Positions 434-41,437 of a DNA stretch of 44,578 nt are shown in pieces. The stretch's first letter is position 1. Each line of letters starts with the position of its first letter. Below the pieces are notes generated by a model that worked only from the letters and a program-made list of their open reading frames with translations, did no database searches and was not told the origin of the DNA. This DNA is from an uncultured Candidatus Saccharibacteria bacterium (lineage in GTDB: Bacteria > Patescibacteriota > Minisyncoccia > UBA6257 > GWB1-50-10), in NCBI GenBank assembly GCA_964476325.1, contig CAYYYM010000001.1:1-44578 (forward strand), written 5' to 3'. The position numbers and the translations under genes are program-made.

Positions 434-1720
434 CTAAAAGCGCGCCGTCATAAGATTCGTGACCTTTGCCGCACCGTCTCTCAAGACCGTGAGGAGCGAC
501 TGCGCCGTTTTGCCGCTTTGTATCATATCCGCGAAGATGCCCGTCGTCTGGTTCCCGTCCGGGTCCTGCCAGGCCCGGCCGATGAGCGCTTGGCGCGCGA
601 AGACGCCCCGTTCGCCGTCTCCCGCGTACTTCGCGATGAGCACCCGCAGCGCCGGCGGGCGTCCGCTCCGCGAGAGATAGTTCTCGGCGTAGCTCCGGTT
701 CGTCGCCATCGTCCGTATGAATTCCCACGCGAGGTTCGGATAGCCGCTCTGCCGCGCCACCGTCCATCCCCAGTACCGCGCATACGTCGCCTTCGCGGCG
801 CCATCAAGTTGCGGCAGCTCGGCGACGTCCAGGTCCACGAACGGCGCCCGCGCCGCCACAAGGTCTTTCCCCTCGTCGTAATCGACGAGCATCGCCAGCT
901 TCCCCGCGGCGAACAGGTCCCGTGCGGCGGGGAGCGTCTCGTTCCACGCGTACACCGCCGAGGAGGGGTGTGCGAACTGGAGATAGAAGTCGAACGGACT
1001 CACCGCGCTCTCCGTCCCGAATACGGCTTTCGTGTACCCCTCGTCAACCACGCTCACGCCGTTCTGGTACCAGAGCGCGCTCACGATGTCCTTCGCGTTC
1101 GGAATGTTTGCCGCGCCGCCGAGCGCGATGGCCGACTGCGCAATCGCGTCGCCGTCGTACTTCGTGAGCGCCGGCGCGATTTCCTGCACTGTTTCCCACG
1201 TCTCCGGCGGGAACGCGATGCCTGCCTCGTTCAACAGCTCGCGGTTATAGATGAGGGCGAGCGTGTCCACGTAGAGCGGAAGGGCGTACACCGAACCGCT
1301 GTACGAGAAGTCGCGTACGACGGTGTCGGGGAAATCGGCGCGCAGCTGCGCCACGGTGTACGCACTCGGGGGGAGCGGGAAAATCTTGTCCCGCTTCCGC
1401 CGCGCGTCGCCGTTTGAGACCCCGAATATATCGGGTCCCTTGCCGGCGGCCAGCGCGTCAATGAGCGTCTTGTCGTAGACGTCGGGGTCCGTAAAGGCGC
1501 GGTAGGTAATCGTCACGTTCGGGTACTCCTCCCTGAACGCCGCGATGATGTCGCTGTAGTTGCTCCCCTTATCGAGTCCCCACATCGAGAGCGTCGCCTT
1601 CACGTTGTGCGGGTCGTTCCGCTTCCCGCCCGCGACAAAGCCGTAGACAAGGAGCGCGCCCAGGAGCCCGACGGCAGCGAGCGTCGCGATGATGATGGCG
1701 GTTGTTTTCTTGTTTTTCAT
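434..1720 (-). CDS. ABC-transporter substrate-binding protein (family 1, sugar type), membrane anchored
   Basis: 428-aa ORF with N-terminal anchor MKNKKTTAIIIATLAAVGLLGALLV. The body looks like SBP_bac_1 (MWGLDKG, GKGPDIF, YALPLYVDTLALIYN, YWGWTVA). No permease or ATPase gene is adjacent. Confidence 0.8.
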   Translation of the reverse strand: MKNKKTTAIIIATLAAVGLLGALLVYGFVAGGKRNDPHNVKATLSMWGLDKGSNYSDIIAAFREEYPNVTITYRAFTDPDVYDKTLIDALAAGKGPDIFGVSNGDARRKRDKIFPLPPSAYTVAQLRADFPDTVVRDFSYSGSVYALPLYVDTLALIYNRELLNEAGIAFPPETWETVQEIAPALTKYDGDAIAQSAIALGGAANIPNAKDIVSALWYQNGVSVVDEGYTKAVFGTESAVSPFDFYLQFAHPSSAVYAWNETLPAARDLFAAGKLAMLVDYDEGKDLVAARAPFVDLDVAELPQLDGAAKATYARYWGWTVARQSGYPNLAWEFIRTMATNRSYAENYLSRSGRPPALRVLIAKYAGDGERGVFARQALIGRAWQDPDGNQTTGIFADMIQSGKTAQSLLTVLRDGAAKVTNLMTARF

Positions 1721-9888: not shown

Positions 9889-11478
9889 GTCCGTTTCCAG
9901 CACCCGCACTTTCCTCACGTACCATGCCGCCACGTTGTCGAAACGGTCAGCCGGCGTCGTCAGCCGCTTCTCCGGACCGAATCCTCCCAGCCGCTCGTCG
10001 TGCACGTACGCGTACGGCACGGTGTACAGGAACACCGCCGGCGAGTCCGCCACGATGTCCGCCACGGCCTCTTCAAACATCTTTTTCCGTTCCACCTCGT
10101 CGGTTTCCTGCCGGATGTCCTCCAGGAGCGTGTCCACGCGCTTGTCCGAGAAGAGCGCGAGGTTCAGGCCGGGGTAGAAACGCTCCGAGGAGTGCCAGAA
10201 CGGGAAGAGGTCATAGGGGTGCTCCAGGACGTTCCCGAAGAGCACCGCTTCGTAGTTGCGCTCCCTCACGACGCGATTCATGAACGTCTCTTCGTCGAGG
10301 GGCACGAGGCGCACCGTACTCACTCCCGCCCGCTCCCACGCGCCCTTTACGAACGCCGCGGTCCGTGCGAGGAAGCCGACGTCCGGATACGCGAGCTCGA
10401 TCTGCAACGGCCCCTCCGTTTCCGCGAGCGCGCGGATGGTCGACGAGGCGCGCTCCGGGTCGGCCGCCTCCGTCCCCGCGTCGTACGGGTCCGGACCGTC
10501 GACCGGCACCGCTCCCGACTGGAACACCGTCTTTACCAGTTCGTCCTTGTCCACCGCCTGGCGCAGCGCTTCGCGGAACGCTTCATTCCCCAGCACCGTC
10601 TTCGCCCGCGGATTGAGAAACACCGCATAGTAGCTTGCCGTATCCACGTCGTCAACCGCTCCCCGCAGGGGGCGCTCCGTCTCAGGCAGAGAAAACGCGC
10701 CGAAGCCGTCGATCGCCCGCCGCCGGTACGCGTCCGTGAGCTCCTTCTCGTTTTCGTAAAACCGGATGACGAACTTCTTGATGAAGGGAGCGGTCCCCTC
10801 GTAGGCATCGTTGCGCACCAGGCGGTACTCGGTGATGAAGCCGTCGCGGCGCTTCACGAACCCCTCCACCCGGTACGGACCGCTCGCGAGCGGTTCGAGG
10901 TTGTAGGCGGAGAGCCGCAGGTTCGCCGGCGGCAGATGACCGAATATGTGGCGCGGGACGAGCCGCAAGTCCCGCAGCGTGTCTCCGAAGAAAACGTACG
11001 GCGAGGGGAGCGTGAATGTCACCCGCAGCTCGCTCACGCGTTCCGCGATGACGCCCTCGAAACTCTGATACCGCGGCGACTGCGTCTCGGGACTCTGAAT
11101 CATGCTCACCGTGAAGATGAGGTCGTCGCTCGTCAGCGGCATGCCGTCCTCCCACGTGAGCCCTTCCTTCAGCTTCACCGTGTACACCCGCCCGTCCTTC
11201 ACGCTCACGTCTTCCGTGAAATCGCCCAGTGTGCCGTAGACGAGGGCGACGAGGGATTCGTCGACGGAATTCGCCGCGATGACGGGGTTCAACGCCGTCG
11301 GCTGACCGATCATACCCTCCGTATACGTGCCGCCCGGCGCCGCGACGACGATGCTTTTCTCGTCTATGACGAGCGAGGCCTTCGCCACGCTCGCGACGAG
11401 GAAGACGCCGAGTGCGACAAGCGCCGCCACGCGTTCCCTGTGTGAAAAGGTTCTGACCAAGCGTCGGATGATGTGCAT
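9859..11478 (-). CDS. ABC-transporter substrate-binding protein, family 5 (peptide/nickel type)
   Basis: 539 aa; N-terminal anchor VAALVALGVFLVASVA, then GGTYTEGMIGQPTALNPV and the general SBP_bac_5 look. The last 10 codons and the TAG stop lie inside tRNA-Leu. No permease or ATPase is nearby. Confidence 0.8.
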   Translation of the reverse strand: MHIIRRLVRTFSHRERVAALVALGVFLVASVAKASLVIDEKSIVVAAPGGTYTEGMIGQPTALNPVIAANSVDESLVALVYGTLGDFTEDVSVKDGRVYTVKLKEGLTWEDGMPLTSDDLIFTVSMIQSPETQSPRYQSFEGVIAERVSELRVTFTLPSPYVFFGDTLRDLRLVPRHIFGHLPPANLRLSAYNLEPLASGPYRVEGFVKRRDGFITEYRLVRNDAYEGTAPFIKKFVIRFYENEKELTDAYRRRAIDGFGAFSLPETERPLRGAVDDVDTASYYAVFLNPRAKTVLGNEAFREALRQAVDKDELVKTVFQSGAVPVDGPDPYDAGTEAADPERASSTIRALAETEGPLQIELAYPDVGFLARTAAFVKGAWERAGVSTVRLVPLDEETFMNRVVRERNYEAVLFGNVLEHPYDLFPFWHSSERFYPGLNLALFSDKRVDTLLEDIRQETDEVERKKMFEEAVADIVADSPAVFLYTVPYAYVHDERLGGFGPEKRLTTPADRFDNVAAWYVRKVRVLETDGDVAERQTR

Positions 11479-16139: not shown

Positions 16140-16257
16140 ACGTCCTCAGCATACCTCCAAATCCCCCGAATATCCACATCGACCGAGACTGTGTCTTTTA
16201 CTTGACTGTGACATTGAAACATTGTGAAACATGGTTTTTGCCCCTTTTTGCGTGTTT

Positions 16258-16280
16258 TTGATGGGAACTTAGTCCCAATT
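16258..16280. repeat. 23-nt motif copy A (TTGATGGGAACTTAGTCCCAATT)
   Basis: 20/23 identical to the reverse complement of 26221..26243 inside tsaD, and 17/23 identical to 16624..16646 inside the transposase ORF (hand alignment, no gaps). Confidence 0.6.
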
Positions 16281-16286
16281 CGTGAA

Positions 16287-16310
16287 AAAATGTTTCTGCA
16301 GAAACATTTT
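16287..16310. repeat. 24-bp perfect palindrome AAAATGTTTCTGCAGAAACATTTT
   Basis: Read directly. Stem plus flanking T/A runs give it bidirectional terminator-like character. Confidence 0.9.
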
Positions 16311-16340
16311 ATCCACAAGTTCTGACCGTTTCAGAGTGTT

Positions 16341-16380
16341 TTTTGCAGAAAATGTTTCTGCAGAAACATTTTCTGCAAAA
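16341..16380. repeat. 40-bp perfect palindrome TTTTGCAGAAAATGTTTCTG|CAGAAACATTTTCTGCAAAA
   Basis: Read directly. It shares the 20-bp core AATGTTTCTGCAGAAACATT with 16287..16310. The half-palindrome is 6/20 G+C. Confidence 0.9.
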
Positions 16381-16425
16381 TTCCTTCATAAAAGTGTCAC
16401 GACAGAAACATTTTTCCTCCATTTA

Positions 16426-16446: not shown

Positions 16447-17103
16447 ATGAGAAACTTGAAGTTTTCGGATGGTGGCATCTACCACATCTTCAACCGGGGC
16501 GTCGACAAGCGGGAGATATTTGATAACGATGCCGATCGCCTCCGCTTCATTTATACTACATTCCTCGTGAATAATGAGAGTCCTACATCCAACCTGGGGC
16601 GTGATTTCTCCCGGTTGAACCACTTGATTGAGACTAAGTTCCAATCGGTGGTACCGGTCGTGGAGATACTCGCATTCGTGCTGATGCCCAACCATTTCCA
16701 TCTCGCCGTGCGGCAGGTGAGCGAGGGGGGTGTGAGCAAGTTTATGCAAAAGCTGGGGCTTGCGTACACGAACTATTTCAACAAGCGGAATGGGCGCTCG
16801 GGAGCACTTTTCGAAGCGACGTTTCGGGCGGTGCCGGTCACGACTGACGTGCAGCTCTACGAGCTTTTCTTCTACATCCACGCCGCGAATCCGCGGGCGC
16901 TCGTGGGAGACGCCGACCCGCTCTCGTTCGTGCGTTCGTACCGGTGGAGCAGTCTGCCTGACTATCTCGGGACCGGGAACTTTCCGCGTTTCACGGAGCG
17001 GGAGTTTTTCCACCGTGAAATCGGCGACCGGCGGAAGGTCGCCGCGGAGCTCGAGTCCTGGCTGCGCGCCAATCCGCGCCCGGTTGACATCGGACCATCC
17101 TGA
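16447..17103 (+). CDS. IS200-like / REP-associated (RAYT-type) Y1 HUH tyrosine transposase
   Basis: 218 aa; GGIYHIFNRGVDKREIF, HUH motif LMPNHFHLAV, GALFEATFRAV, catalytic-Tyr motif FFYIHAANP, and YRWSSLPDYLG. This is the pattern of the COG1943/Y1_Tnp family. No tnpB is adjacent. Confidence 0.85.
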   Translation: MRNLKFSDGGIYHIFNRGVDKREIFDNDADRLRFIYTTFLVNNESPTSNLGRDFSRLNHLIETKFQSVVPVVEILAFVLMPNHFHLAVRQVSEGGVSKFMQKLGLAYTNYFNKRNGRSGALFEATFRAVPVTTDVQLYELFFYIHAANPRALVGDADPLSFVRSYRWSSLPDYLGTGNFPRFTEREFFHREIGDRRKVAAELESWLRANPRPVDIGPS

Positions 17104-25655: not shown

Positions 25656-25661
25656 CCGATG

Positions 25662-25789
25662 CCCAGTAAAACTACACCGATATCCAAAGGATGGGCATCA
25701 TAACGCAGACATTATGGACAAACCGTATACAAGGTCAAGAACTTCTCATACCGCCCGTAGCTTTATGCTATCGGTGTAGTTTTACCGGG
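25662..25789. repeat. 128-bp inverted-repeat element (21-bp arms, 20/21 paired, 86-bp AT-richer spacer)
   Basis: CCCAGTAAAACTACACCGATA (25662..25682) pairs with TATCGGTGTAGTTTTACCGGG (25769..25789). The right arm ends 2 nt before the tsaD ATG. Confidence 0.85.
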
Positions 25790-25791
25790 CG

Positions 25792-26844
25792 ATGCGAGTA
25801 CTTGCCATAGAAACGTCCTGCGACGAGACCGCGCTCGCGCTCGTGAATTTCTCCTGTGGAGAGGAAGGGTGTGACATCGCTATCGAGGCCGAGGAGGTGG
25901 CGTCGCAGGTAGCGCTCCACCGCCCCTACGGCGGCGTCGTTCCGAACGTCGCCAAGCGCGAGCACGAGCGGAATCTGCCCGTTCTCTTCGAGCGCATTTC
26001 CGGCCGCGCCGGGTTTGACCCGAGGTCCGTCGACACGGTAGCGGTGACGGTGGGGCCGGGACTCGACCCGGCGCTCTGGGCGGGCATCACGTTTGCCGAA
26101 GAACTGCACAGGAAGCGTTTCCCACACGCGCGACTCGTCGGCGCGAACCACCTCGAGGGGCATCTGTACAGCTTTCTTTTGTCGGACTCTTTGAAGGGAA
26201 CTAAGTTGCCGCTCACCGGTGATTGGGACTTAGTTCCCTTCAAGAATGTATTCCCCGCGGTTCACCTCCTCGTCTCCGGCGGGCACACGATGCTCGTCCT
26301 CATGCGCGGCGTGAAAGAACGCACCGTGCTCGGCGAGACGCGCGACGACGCAGTCGGGGAAGCGTTCGACAAGGTGGCGCGCCTCCTGGGACTCCCGTAT
26401 CCCGGGGGACCCGAGATAGAGCGTCTTGCCTCGGCGTACCGAAAACCGCCGTCAATATCGTTCCCGGAGCCGATGGCGCACTCGGGGGACTACGATTTCA
26501 GCTACTCGGGGCTCAAAACCGCCGTCCGGTACTATCTCCGCGGACATCCGGGCGCGGACGTATCGGAGATTGCGCACGCGTTCCAGGAAGCGGCGTTCGC
26601 GCCGCTTGTCCTGAAAGCGAAGCGCGCGCTCGAGGAGTACGGCGCGGCATCACTTATGCTCTCCGGCGGCGTGGCGGCGAATCATGCGCTTCAGGAAACA
26701 TTGAAAGAACTCTGCTCCGACGAGTGTCGTTTCTTCGTCGCGCCCCTGCGGTACAATACAGACAACGCGACGATGATTACCATCGCTGCGTACGTCAACA
26801 GAATGGGGTACGAACTCCGTTCGCAGCCGAATCTCAGTTTGTAG
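25792..26844 (+). CDS. tsaD: tRNA N6-adenosine threonylcarbamoyltransferase TsaD
   Basis: MRVLAIETSCDETALAL, NHLEGHL, LLVSGGHT, GLPYPGGP, FSYSGLKT, SGGVAANH. Carries an extra segment (see repeat 26191..26243). Confidence 0.93.
   Translation: MRVLAIETSCDETALALVNFSCGEEGCDIAIEAEEVASQVALHRPYGGVVPNVAKREHERNLPVLFERISGRAGFDPRSVDTVAVTVGPGLDPALWAGITFAEELHRKRFPHARLVGANHLEGHLYSFLLSDSLKGTKLPLTGDWDLVPFKNVFPAVHLLVSGGHTMLVLMRGVKERTVLGETRDDAVGEAFDKVARLLGLPYPGGPEIERLASAYRKPPSISFPEPMAHSGDYDFSYSGLKTAVRYYLRGHPGADVSEIAHAFQEAAFAPLVLKAKRALEEYGAASLMLSGGVAANHALQETLKELCSDECRFFVAPLRYNTDNATMITIAAYVNRMGYELRSQPNLSL
26191..26243. repeat. 53-nt near-palindrome (REPIN-like doublet) inside the tsaD reading frame
   Basis: TTGAAGGGAACTAAGT (26191..26206) and ACTTAGTTCCCTTCAA (26228..26243) are perfect 16-nt inverted arms. 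The 21-nt spacer contains the palindrome TCACCGGTGA. Confidence 0.85.
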
Positions 26845-38284: not shown

Positions 38285-39552
38285 ACAATTTTGAAACCTA
38301 CAAAATGAGCAACGGCATCGAGGTCATCCTCGTGCCGATGCCGCAGAGTCCCGCAACGACGGTTATGGTGACCGTCAAGGTTGGCTCTAAATATGAGACG
38401 AAGGAGATTTCGGGTCTTTCGCATTTCCTCGAACATATGGCGTTCAAGGGGACGGTGAAACGACCGCGGCCGGGCGATATCGCGGAAGAGCTTGACGGTT
38501 TGGGCGCCCGCTACAACGCGTTCACCGCCCAAGAATCAACCGCATACTACGCGAAAGCAAGAAACGCGCTCGCTCCACGGCTCATTGAAATCGTCTCCGA
38601 CCTCTACCTCCACCCAACGTTTCCCGAAGCCGAGCTCGAGAAAGAACGCGGCGTCATCATCGAAGAAATTAACATGTATGAAGATATCCCGATGCGGAAG
38701 GTTGAGGAGTCCTTTTACCATCTCCTTTACGGCGACCAGCCGGCGGGGTGGAGTATCGCGGGGAGGAAAGAGGTCGTCGGGAGTATGAAGCGCAACGAAT
38801 TTATCGCGTACCGCACCACGCATTACGTTTCGGGAAACACCATCGTCACCGTCGCGGGTGGCTACGACCCACAGGCGATTCGCGGACTTCTCGAGGAAGC
38901 GTTCGCGGCCGTTCCCCGGGCTCCCGAGACGCCACTGCCGCCCGTCGTGGAGCAGCAGAGCGCGCCGTGTACTTCCTTCGAGAACAAATCGTCCGACCAG
39001 GCGCACCTTGTCATCGGATTCCGCGCGTTCAGCGTGCATGACGAGCGGAAATACGCCCTCATGGTGCTTGCGGATATCCTGGGCGGCGGCATGAGTTCCC
39101 GGCTCTTCACCAAACTGCGGGACGATATGGGCGTCGCTTACTATGTGCACGCCGACGATGACCTTACGACAAACAGCGGTATCATTGCGGCGGATGCCGG
39201 CGTGAGCGCGGGACGAGTCGCGGAAGCGACGGAGGCGATTATCCGCGAATTCGAGCGGTTCAAAGAAGAACCGGTTTCCGACAGTGAGCTTGCGAAGGCG
39301 AAGGAACACCTCGTCGGCAACTTTTTCCTGTCCCTCGAAACCTCCGACAGCCTGGCGAATATGTACACGGGACAGCGCGTCGACGGGCTTGCCGTCATGA
39401 CGCCCGAGCAGTTTGCGGCGAAGACCCAGGGGGTAACCGCGCGGGAGATTCAAGATGTCGCCCGAGCGCTTTTCGTGAACGAGGGACTCAACATGGCGGC
39501 CATTGGTTCCTTCAAACAGGAGGGGCTTGGTGATATAGTAAAGATGTCATGA
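38281..39552 (+). CDS. M16-family (insulinase/pitrilysin-like) zinc peptidase
   Basis: GTG start overlapping the glyQS stop (GTGA). HFLEHMAFKG (HxxEH). Confidence 0.88.
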   Translation: MNNFETYKMSNGIEVILVPMPQSPATTVMVTVKVGSKYETKEISGLSHFLEHMAFKGTVKRPRPGDIAEELDGLGARYNAFTAQESTAYYAKARNALAPRLIEIVSDLYLHPTFPEAELEKERGVIIEEINMYEDIPMRKVEESFYHLLYGDQPAGWSIAGRKEVVGSMKRNEFIAYRTTHYVSGNTIVTVAGGYDPQAIRGLLEEAFAAVPRAPETPLPPVVEQQSAPCTSFENKSSDQAHLVIGFRAFSVHDERKYALMVLADILGGGMSSRLFTKLRDDMGVAYYVHADDDLTTNSGIIAADAGVSAGRVAEATEAIIREFERFKEEPVSDSELAKAKEHLVGNFFLSLETSDSLANMYTGQRVDGLAVMTPEQFAAKTQGVTAREIQDVARALFVNEGLNMAAIGSFKQEGLGDIVKMS

Positions 39553-40559
39553 AGACGACGAAGATTGAGGTGAGTTGGGGGACGTTGTGGCAGCTGCTCC
39601 TCTTTATCGCGCTCGCCATCGTGTTCTTCAACGCCGCGGGGGTTTGGGCAGCGCTCTTCGGCGCCATCGTCATCTCGCTCGGCATCGACCCGGTCGTCGG
39701 CTTTCTCGAGAAGAAGGGGGTGCACCGGTTCTTGGGAACGCTCGCGGTCTTCATCGTCGGCATCGGCATCGTCGCGGCCGCCGTGTATTTCCTCATCCCC
39801 ACGCTCGCGGGGCAGATCGGCGCGTTTATCTCCCGATTCAACGAGATTATCGCGAAATTCTTCGGCATCGGCGTTCCCCAGTCCGTCATCGAGACGCTGA
39901 GCCAGAACATCACGCAGATATTCCAGACCGTCACGTCGGGTGACGTCGGCGGGACGATTTCCAAATTTCTGCAGAACGTCCTCTACGTCGCCGCCGCGTT
40001 CGTCATCAGCTTCTACCTTTCCATAGAGAAGGACGGACCGGAGCGGCTCATGCGCGCCATCCTGCCCGACGCGTACGAGAAAGCGGTCCTTACCGTTTTC
40101 GGCAGATTCGCGCGGAAGGTGCGCTGGTGGCTCTCCACGCAAATCGGGATGAGCCTCTTCATCGGCGTGATGGTCGCTCTCGGGATGTGGGTGCTCGGCG
40201 TGCCGTACGCGCTGACGCTCGGCGCGCTCGCCGCACTTTTTGAGCTCCTGCCGGTCATCGGCCCGGTGCTCTCCGGCGTCACCGCCTTTCTCATCGCCAT
40301 CTCGCAGTCGCCGATACTCGGACTCTACGTCGCCATTTTCTTCATCGTCCTGCAGCAGCTGGAGAACCACGTGCTTATCCCCATCGTGATGGGGAAGTCC
40401 GTCCGGGTCCACCCGGTCATCATCCTGATATCGCTTCTCGCCGGCGCGAAGGTCGCCGGCATCGCGGGCGTCGTGCTCGCCGTGCCCATGGCACTCCTCG
40501 CCCAGGAAACGTTCAGCTATTTCTCGGAGCGGAAGTCGGCACGCCGACAGCTCCTGTGA
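39549..40559 (+). CDS. AI-2E family transporter (PerM/UPF0118)
   Basis: ATGA overlap with the upstream stop. About 7-8 TM helices. LFELLPVIGPVLSGV and VHPVIILISLL are typical. Confidence 0.85.
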   Translation: MKTTKIEVSWGTLWQLLLFIALAIVFFNAAGVWAALFGAIVISLGIDPVVGFLEKKGVHRFLGTLAVFIVGIGIVAAAVYFLIPTLAGQIGAFISRFNEIIAKFFGIGVPQSVIETLSQNITQIFQTVTSGDVGGTISKFLQNVLYVAAAFVISFYLSIEKDGPERLMRAILPDAYEKAVLTVFGRFARKVRWWLSTQIGMSLFIGVMVALGMWVLGVPYALTLGALAALFELLPVIGPVLSGVTAFLIAISQSPILGLYVAIFFIVLQQLENHVLIPIVMGKSVRVHPVIILISLLAGAKVAGIAGVVLAVPMALLAQETFSYFSERKSARRQLL

Positions 40560-41395
40560 CGCCCCTTCTCGACGCACACGCGCATCCGCAGTTCCCGCAC
40601 TACGACGGGGACCGCGACGCTCTGCTCCGCCGCGCGCGGAACGCGGGCGTCGTCCGCATCGTCGCCGTCGGGACGAGCGCCGAGGACTCCCGGAAAGCCG
40701 TCGCGCTCGCGGAACGGGAACCTGACCTCGTCCGCGCGACGGTTGGGATTCACCCCGCGGAAAGGAATGAAGTTGAACTTCCTTCCATGGAAGGAAGTTC
40801 AACTTCATTCCATTGGGATTTTGTCCGCGATCTTGCGTATCACCAGCTCGTCGTCGCCATCGGCGAGTGCGGTCTGGATTACTTCCGGATAGAAGGAGGA
40901 GACGACGAAAAGTCCTACCAGCGCGAGTTGTTTTTGAAACATATCGCGCTTGCCCGGGAGGTCGGCAAGCCCTTGATGATTCATTCCCGGCCGTCGCAGG
41001 GAACGTATGACGCGTACGAGGAGATTTACGAGACACTGCGAGCGCAGCAGCCCGTACCGCGTTTCATCATGCATTTCTTCGTCTGCGATGACGTCGCGCT
41101 CGCGAACAAGTTTCTCAAGCTCGGTGCGTACTTCACCTTCGGCGGCGTGCTCACGGTCACGCACCAGTATGACGAGACGGTCCGGACGCTCCCGCTCGAG
41201 CGGCTTATGACCGAAACGGACGCACCATTCGTCACACCTCTGCAGGAGCGGGGTAAGCGCAACGAGCCCGCGTTCGTGAAATATACTTTGGAGCGCCTCG
41301 CGGAATTGAAGGAGACGGACATTGATTCCTGCGCCGCGCAGATTCTCAAAAACGCCGATTCCATATTCGAAAATTCGAAAAGGGGCTTTGATTGA
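40556..41395 (+). CDS. tatD: TatD-family metal-dependent hydrolase
   Basis: GTGA overlap with the upstream stop. LLDAHAHPQF, AIGECGLDY, PLMIHSR, IMHFF, MTETDAPF, RNEPAFV. Contains the 48-bp palindrome. Confidence 0.88.
   Translation: MTPLLDAHAHPQFPHYDGDRDALLRRARNAGVVRIVAVGTSAEDSRKAVALAEREPDLVRATVGIHPAERNEVELPSMEGSSTSFHWDFVRDLAYHQLVVAIGECGLDYFRIEGGDDEKSYQRELFLKHIALAREVGKPLMIHSRPSQGTYDAYEEIYETLRAQQPVPRFIMHFFVCDDVALANKFLKLGAYFTFGGVLTVTHQYDETVRTLPLERLMTETDAPFVTPLQERGKRNEPAFVKYTLERLAELKETDIDSCAAQILKNADSIFENSKRGFD
40764..40811. repeat. 48-bp perfect palindrome inside the tatD reading frame
   Basis: GGAATGAAGTTGAACTTCCTTCCA|TGGAAGGAAGTTCAACTTCATTCC. All 24 pairs were checked by hand; 20/48 G+C. 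The length is a multiple of three. Confidence 0.9.
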
Positions 41396-41437
41396 TTTCG
41401 GGAATCTAACAGTTGTTAGATTCCCGAAATCAATCAA
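41388..41437. repeat. hairpin with perfect 23-bp stem and 4-nt loop, overlapping the tatD stop codon
   Basis: TTGATTGATTTCGGGAATCTAAC, loop AGTT, GTTAGATTCCCGAAATCAATCAA. All pairs were checked by hand; each arm is 8/23 G+C. Confidence 0.9.

Follow-up and report, generated by a model that had tools for sequence, protein, structure and literature searches.

A palindrome in frame in tatD of a Saccharibacteria genome is probably a REPIN-like doublet of a hairpin family associated with RAYT-like transposases

We analyzed a 44,578-nucleotide stretch of DNA (the window) from an uncultured Candidatus Saccharibacteria bacterium, in which the gene for a TatD-family DNase, tatD, carries a perfect 48-bp palindrome. 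This palindrome is most probably a doublet of two inverted hairpin units, comparable to the REPINs formed by repetitive extragenic palindromic (REP) sequences; it would belong to a hairpin family associated with REP-associated tyrosine transposases (RAYTs) and would have been kept because the protein loop that it encodes tolerates it. The doublet is repeated at other loci, its copy in tatD lies in the coding segment of a surface loop, and hairpins of its class accompany a Patescibacteria-wide clade of RAYT-like transposase genes. By analogy with the REP/RAYT and IS200/IS605 systems, a RAYT-like enzyme of the Y1 type would mobilize the element on single-stranded DNA (PMC5581495, PMC3333891). 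The features that carry this argument are as follows.

40556..41395, + strand: tatD, TatD-family hydrolase/DNase and host gene of the palindrome (Pfam PF01026 TatD_DNase, E 5e-68).

40764..40811, no strand assigned: 48-bp palindrome, probable REPIN-like doublet; unit 1 at 40764-40786 (GGAATGAAGTTGAACTTCCTTCC), spacer AT, unit 2 at 40789-40811 (GGAAGGAAGTTCAACTTCATTCC).

16447..17103, + strand: RAYT-like Y1/HUH tyrosine transposase gene, 218 aa (Pfam Y1_Tnp; HUH motif NHFHL, tyrosine motif YIHAANP).

The original prediction, made from the letters alone, had described a perfect, spacerless 48-bp palindrome in frame in tatD, and we found it again at 40764-40811. It consists of GGAATGAAGTTGAACTTCCTTCCA followed directly by its own exact reverse complement, with a spacer of 0 and the centre CCATGG. 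Its low G+C content, given earlier as 42 % in richer surroundings, was reproduced at 41.7 %, where tatD has 59.3 % and the window as a whole 60.7 %. The perfect arms are 24 nt long, compared with 7-13 nt for the longest spacerless arms in 30 random windows drawn from a Markov-1 model. Each arm is itself a quasi-palindrome, and the plus strand re-matches the arm at an offset of 25 with 3 mismatches. The 48-mer can be written as four alternating 11-mers (GGAAKGAAGTT), that is, as two 23-nt hairpin units joined by AT. A single 23-nt unit, GGAAKGAAGTT-S-AACTTCMTTCC, folds on its own (z = -3.75), and the complete 48-mer reaches hairpin z-scores of -10.4 as DNA and -7.5 as RNA. Rfam found one tRNA in the window and nothing on the palindrome.

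The palindrome encodes residues 70-85 of TatD (RNEVELPSMEGSSTSF) and the first base of H86. Deletion of all 48 nt, which yields HPAENWDF, or of either arm keeps the reading frame, and the distance from HP to VVAIGE, which is 31 residues, falls to 23 without one arm; the frame arithmetic reported earlier therefore holds on recomputation. The 48-mer is open in two of the three frames, which rules out its description as stop-free in all six. Palindromes become strongly unstable in E. coli from roughly 150-200 bp, and 48 bp is well under that length. SbcC and SbcD were absent from the annotated open reading frames (ORFs) of the window, which make up about half of the ORFs in these 44.6 kb.

No further match to the palindrome arm with at most 3 mismatches was present in the window (chance expectation 0.00), and the arm was not found in the tatD loci of four relatives (L001-L004). 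A scan with the exact 23-mer GGAAKGAAGTTSAACTTCMTTCC, a search that diverged copies escape, identified four metagenome contigs of the JGI collection (L005, L006, L007, and L008). The family unit is a 23-nt palindrome, GGAAGGAAGTT-S-AACTTCCTTCC. At all four loci the central base is G in one unit and C in the other, which makes each an inverted doublet; both orders (G/C and C/G) occur, and the spacers between units measure 2, 3, or 6 nt. The family thus has at least four loci, two intergenic and two in frame (tatD and gatC).

L006, a separate assembly of the tatD locus, shares 99.9 % identity with window positions 39007-40916; the two substitutions in these 1,910 nt lie outside the palindrome, which is identical. 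In L005, from metagenome Ga0307421, the identical 48-mer has the stop codon of a PEP-utilising enzyme fragment on one side and a 2-hydroxyacid dehydrogenase gene on the other. L007 contains an intergenic doublet between two genes, GGAAGGAAGTTCAACTTCCTTC-TATAAT-GGAAGGAAGTTGAACTTCCTTCC. In L008, a unit-AAC-unit arrangement followed by a 9-nt terminal duplication lies in frame in gatC (516..824) and encodes the peptide MEGSSTSFQRKEVELPSLPS; a GatC that differs by one residue and contains the same element peptide is encoded on a 42.4-kb NCBI contig. The copies in tatD, gatC, and L007 all come from metagenome Ga0315555. A symmetric T/A variant is common to the window, L005, and L006. Together with the perfect symmetry of the 48-mer, the sharing of this variant with L005 suggests that the element propagates as a whole doublet.

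The 23-mer had no match among 185,579 species genomes, and viral contigs likewise gave none. As far as can be seen, the 48-mer family is narrow and low-copy. A peptide search with the element translations returned a single candidate, GatC, too little for a count of the in-frame copies. The segment spanned in 13 relatives by 13-15 residues takes up 20 in the element-bearing GatC. There, the element starts exactly at the E-G codons (its M-E-G coincides with VD-x-EG), and the conserved G-V-E-P of VDxEGVEP is lost. The element seems to have overwritten native gatC sequence, with a net gain of only 6 residues.

At two of these loci, the last 9-10 nt of the doublet are tandemly duplicated immediately after the element (L005 425-434, ACTTCATTCC twice; L008 702-710, CTTCCTTCC twice). 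These duplications may have been left by the copying mechanism or by replication slippage. Two other candidate signatures were rejected. The 8-nt direct repeat TTGGGATT (40742 and 40813) is not a target duplication, since it encloses the conserved HP codons and spans 71 nt, which is not a multiple of three. The 11-6-11 layout of L007 had pointed to a dif-like or recombinase core site, which is ruled out by spacers that vary between loci (2, 3, and 6 nt).

In TatD, the residues encoded by the palindrome (70-85) fall in the loop between the strand at 59-63 and the helix at 85-94. The AlphaFold model has a mean predicted local distance difference test (pLDDT) score of 89.4; it shows residues 70-84 as a low-confidence loop preceding helix 85-94, with residues 76-83 below 50. 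The model thus predicts that the tatD copy encodes a disordered surface loop. All catalytic motifs of TatD are intact despite the palindrome, and the genes around tatD are syntenic with those of relatives.

The segment from HP to VVAIGECGLDY varies widely in length among 24 TatD homologues. In the solved TatD structures 1j6o and 2gzx the loop is 9 residues shorter than in the window protein, and removal of all 16 element codons would leave a loop shorter than in any homologue. Distant homologues with longer TatD loops (L092-L094) have no palindromic DNA beneath the loop, so loop variability alone does not imply such elements. Older inserts in TatD loops may have decayed.

The RAYT-like gene of the window encodes a protein that passes the Pfam Y1_Tnp cutoff of 23 with 27.9 bits, and its NHFHL and YIHAANP motifs are invariant in 22 homologues. 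An orthologue with 64 % identity occupies the same cob-adenosyltransferase / RAYT-like / nusA context in L009 and L010. Most RAYT-like protein clusters were found on one contig, with two copies in a few genomes. Given this conserved syntenic position, the gene is passed on at a fixed site, as RAYTs are and insertion sequences are not. Three hairpin features belong to this gene.

16258..16278, - strand: hairpin unit with a CTTAG loop, TTGATGGGAACTTAGTCCCAA, located 5' of the RAYT-like gene, with a 19/21 nt match to the arm of a doublet in tsaD.

16287..16414, no strand assigned: AAAATGTTTCTGCAGAAACATTTT palindrome cluster upstream of the RAYT-like gene, with two perfect copies and one degenerate copy.

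16624..16646, + strand: inverted copy of the flank hairpin unit, TTGATTGAGACTAAGTTCCAATC, inside the RAYT-like coding sequence.

The hairpin in the 5' flank reads TTGAT-GGGAACTTAGTCCC, and its counterpart in L009 has compensatory stem changes and an identical loop. The AAAATGTTTCTGCAGAAACATTTT cluster includes a spacerless 40-bp palindrome at 16341-16380, and the motif is kept upstream of the orthologue in L009 and L010. As a separate observation, repeated GAAACAT(TTT) boxes and AAAATGTTTCTRCAGAAACATTTT palindromes upstream of the gene (window 16204-16424, L009 9756-9954) are conserved even though the proteins are only 64 % identical; these may be operator or recognition sites.

We compared 80 loci of homologous RAYT-like genes from species genomes, mostly Patescibacteria, and determined hairpin density over 79 of them. 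Upstream of the 79 genes there are 2.28 perfect hairpins of 9 bp or more per kb, compared with 0.31 per kb elsewhere. This density is 7.5 times higher in the 400 nt upstream, and 68 of the 79 loci have hairpins in their flanks. The palindromic core GRRGYYSRRCYYC is found within 300 nt upstream in 28 of the 80 loci (1.37 vs 0.047 per kb, ~29-fold), and the exact core, or apex, of the tatD unit, GAAGTTSAACTTC, occurs upstream in L013, L021, L025, L029, and L048. Inverted doublets like the one in tatD are present at L021 1601/1623 and L056 867/896. Because the core GAAGTTSAACTTC and the doublets both occur there, the architecture and apex of the tatD palindrome are those of the hairpins accompanying this transposase clade.

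The usual layout comprises the same species-specific hairpin upstream of the gene, in frame inside it (+150 to +195 and/or +465 to +500), and just downstream; examples among loci L011-L090 are L025 (5961/6178/6494/6723) and L027 (5859/5919/6466/6698). Within a locus the stems agree, whereas they change from one species to another, a pattern that suggests concerted evolution or repeated re-insertion. In 34 of the 79 homologous loci, 14-mers are common to the flanks and the remaining locus. Among 21 further dispersed copies in RAYT-like loci, 7 lie deep inside long ORFs, and Pfam named four of these seven as MnmA, a PPDK-like protein, an SLT-domain protein, and a reverse transcriptase. In another RAYT-like locus (L091 1786-1815), the downstream hairpin CCCTGATTAGAGCTAAGCTCTAATCAGGG supplies the stop codon of the RAYT-like gene, paralleling a palindrome at the 3' end of tatD.

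Several observations weigh against reading the tatD palindrome as a REPIN-like doublet of RAYT-associated hairpins. Copy number appears low, with the exact 23-mer on four JGI contigs and in 0 of 185,579 species genomes. At the four sites we saw no GTAG/CGTC tag, no target duplication, and no common target motif. There is no empty tatD site for comparison, the closest TatD being only 52-63 % identical. With respect to the transposase, its sole NCBIfam match is REP_Tyr_transpos at 29.1 bits, below the cutoff of 80, and the clade profile matches the ISDra2 TnpA (E 0.02, the best PDB match) and the TnpA-REP 4er8 (E 0.08) about equally. Above all, the window transposase is flanked by CTTAG-loop hairpins and GAAACAT boxes rather than by the tatD unit, and neither the window nor the loci compared yielded a transposase gene with GGAAGGAAGTT units at its flanks. 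Furthermore, the net gain in length is ~9 residues in tatD for an element of 16 and ~6 in gatC for an element of 20, unlike a simple cut-and-paste insertion. The element seems to have replaced some native codons in both genes, possibly via GAAGG microhomology.

We propose the following sequence of events for a mobile doublet. A RAYT-like Y1 transposase, either the one in the window or an unseen paralogue, would copy or move the element as a folded single strand. The tatD copy would have landed in a hypervariable loop, partly overwriting loop codons. It would then have persisted because its length is a multiple of three, because it is stop-free in the frame used, and because it is structurally harmless.

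The alternative that fares best, although we consider it unlikely, is that the palindrome is a selected cis-acting hairpin (a protein site, a terminator, an mRNA stabiliser, or a translation pause) and that the tatD copy acts as an intragenic regulator, a role that would be compatible with a REPIN-like origin. Consistent with such a role, the RNA hairpin of the palindrome has a free energy of -39.5 kcal/mol, the intergenic copies in L005 and L007 lie right after stop codons or between genes, and such roles have been ascribed to REPs (PMC3733652). A second family likewise sits at gene 3' ends, its copy in the window being the palindrome at the end of tatD.

41388..41437, no strand assigned: second palindromic doublet, of a different family, with 24-nt perfect arms (TTGATTGATTTCGGGAATCTAACA) and a 2-nt spacer.

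This doublet contributes the final two codons of tatD and also its stop codon. At L005 1529-1578, right after the stop codon of another gene, a 22/23 copy of its unit forms an inverted doublet with the opposite arm order, and similar hairpins flank the RAYT-like gene in L028. It is a second dispersed family. Against a regulatory role for the 48-mer, there is no functional link between tatD and gatC, the copies differ in arrangement and reading frame, and the insertion sites are tolerant loops, as would be found for neutral survivors.

The original prediction had offered two origins for the palindrome, an inserted palindromic element or a 24-nt inverted duplication from template switching. In the second case, tatD would originally have contained one 24-nt arm, and fold-back during replication would have added the other on the spot as its inverted copy. 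The loop, only ~9 residues longer than in solved TatDs, is extended by close to the length of one arm, and the peptide of the second arm, MEGSSTSF-H, aligns with the loop residues of homologues, including the conserved F. The symmetric T/A variant also indicates that, at some point, one unit served as the template for the other. A similar picture is seen in L001, the closest TatD relative, where a 185-nt in-frame insert at 10146-10330 occupies the same loop with 24-nt inverted arms (RNA fold z = -7.8), and its right arm contains the native S-D-W-D-F codons. Despite these points, we regard a local template switch as very unlikely, above all since the identical 48-mer is present at the unrelated intergenic locus L005. 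The same units occur in the opposite arrangement in gatC and L007, the arm has 42 % G+C within a 59 % gene, and the unit matches the hairpin class beside transposase genes in many species. As for the suggestion that loss of one arm restores a normal loop spacing, the excess of ~8-9 residues over solved TatDs stands, but the same length shortfall in gatC argues for replacement of native codons rather than for one arm being native. The first origin, insertion of a palindromic element, is borne out by the same 48-mer and its close variants at other loci and by the RAYT-linked hairpin class.

It is also highly improbable that the 48-mer is a DDE-type miniature inverted-repeat element, with terminal inverted repeats and a target-site duplication and unrelated to Y1 transposases. 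Another tatD locus does show that signature. In L002, a precise 72-nt in-frame insert at codon 3 of tatD (10007-10078) has 12-nt terminal inverted repeats (CCCGATAGTGAC) and a 6-bp direct repeat, GTTGAC, and is absent from L003, a relative with 85-90 % identity; this is the signature of a miniature transposon. In contrast, no direct repeat flanks the 48-mer at any of its four loci, the element consists of two hairpin units and nothing else, and this unit type is specifically enriched beside Y1 transposase genes.

Finally, an assembly or sequencing artefact (for instance a fold-back chimera, or a short palindrome wrongly resolved in the de Bruijn graph) is conceivable for a window that stems from a metagenome assembly, yet it is hardly credible given the same junctions in the separately assembled L006, the same 48-mer in a different metagenome (L005), internal mismatches in the arm that leave no common k-mer long enough to mislead an assembler, and a preserved reading frame.

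REPs, REPINs, and RAYTs (TnpA-REP) have been characterized in detail (Nunvar 2010; Ton-Hoang 2012, PMC3333891), for the most part in Proteobacteria (Bertels & Rainey 2011, PMC3116915; Bertels 2017, PMC5581495). As in these systems, the unit is a short imperfect palindrome, two inverted units form one long hairpin, copies are dispersed, and the Y1/HUH gene is single-copy, hairpin-flanked, and at a conserved chromosomal position. The host, Patescibacteria, is different, the GTAG/CGTC tag at the hairpin foot is absent, copy number is apparently low next to the tens to hundreds of copies per genome typical of REPs, and the doublet spacer is near zero. Whereas REPs and REPINs are typically extragenic, half of the copies known here lie inside genes, with those in tatD and gatC in frame. 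Unlike in RAYT systems, hairpins also occur in frame inside the transposase gene, and the protein, at ~220-230 aa, falls under the NCBI threshold for RAYTs. Our search of the literature found no paper linking RAYTs or REPINs with Patescibacteria.

Palindromic repeats within genes have precedents. Intragenic REPs and the Rickettsia palindromic elements (RPEs) RPE-4 and RPE-6 lie in frame in functional genes, over half of them being dimers that code for 20-30 residues, and many intragenic REPs are located in genes for DNA replication and repair (Di Nocera et al. 2013, PMC3733652). The tatD element resembles these in being an in-frame palindromic doublet, and its host protein, TatD, is a DNase; its sequence family and host differ, and the inserts described here appear to replace part of the native loop. 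Rickettsia RPE-1 (Ogata et al. 2000) is 100-150 bp long and in frame in ORFs, compared with 48 bp for the in-frame tatD element. REP dimers inside genes are thus already known in other phyla. The present case stands apart in its phylum, its divergent transposase clade, the missing tag, the hairpins within the transposase gene, the low copy number, the near-zero spacer, and the apparent replacement of native codons.

A Y1/HUH transposase is likewise shared with the IS200/IS605 elements (IS608, ISDra2), whose enzyme recognizes subterminal DNA hairpins on single strands. Unlike in those elements, the transposase gene does not occur in many copies here and keeps its syntenic position across species, and the dispersed units are gene-free. 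Several of the hairpin units are preceded by TTGAT or TTGAA. TTGAT is the target of ISDra2. Elhai and colleagues reportedly described, in 2008, cyanobacterial small dispersed repeats (SDRs), mobile palindromes of ~21-27 nt that can be nested and lie inside coding genes. We know of no transposase linked to SDRs and of no sequence relation between them and the tatD unit.

Other palindromic inserts lie elsewhere in the window and in the tatD genes of relatives, one of them in tsaD.

26191..26243, no strand assigned: in-frame inverted doublet in tsaD (25792..26844), with 16-nt perfect arms, a 21-nt spacer, and a CTTAG-type unit.

The arm of this doublet matches the hairpin unit at 16258-16278 in 19 of 21 nt (chance expectation 0.00), and the doublet corresponds to an insertion of ~17 residues relative to the solved TsaD 6nak. 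The tatD palindrome had been judged earlier to have no convincing relation to the tsaD motif. The two sequences are indeed unrelated, but both are the same kind of element. In addition to the 185-nt insert, the tatD of L001 contains a GGAAGYCSGACTTCC doublet of the same hairpin class in the next loop (10429-10471). In total, five palindromic insertions in tatD across three lineages suggest a hotspot, among loci that were chosen through tatD.

We tentatively extend these observations to the phylum, with rather less confidence than we place in the doublet itself. On this reading, Patescibacteria may carry an undescribed, phylum-wide system of hairpins and a domesticated Y1 transposase. The hairpins, which have a conserved GARGTYSRACYTC apex and species-specific stems and lie before, after, or in frame in the transposase gene, would co-evolve with that gene, as they appear to do, and might repeatedly have been written in frame into tatD, gatC, tsaD, mnmA, and the PPDK-like gene. 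Partial replacement of native loop codons would then point to a copy-in process, similar to template switching or gene conversion, rather than to cut-and-paste. tatD, which codes for a single-strand DNA exonuclease, may be a recurrent target.

Read as a REPIN-like doublet, the tatD palindrome would itself be evidence that the ultra-small genomes of the Candidate Phyla Radiation (CPR), where mobile DNA is thought to be scarce, contain active single-strand DNA elements of the REP/RAYT type, and that these remodel surface loops of core enzymes. The clade would also offer a natural series for the study of hairpin recognition by Y1 enzymes, with a constant apex and stems that co-vary between species. 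For annotators, the implication is that low-G+C, perfectly palindromic inserts in CPR genes can be real and should not be trimmed as artefacts.

A further repeat lies next to tsaD. The motif TATCGGTGTAGTTTTACYGGGC occurs twice, in inverted orientation (25661-25682 and 25769-25790), in the divergent intergenic region between a dksA-like gene and tsaD. Only 1 nt separates the end of the second copy from the tsaD ATG, and a similar motif directly precedes the leuS ATG in L001 (11131-11151). This motif may be a promoter or leader element.

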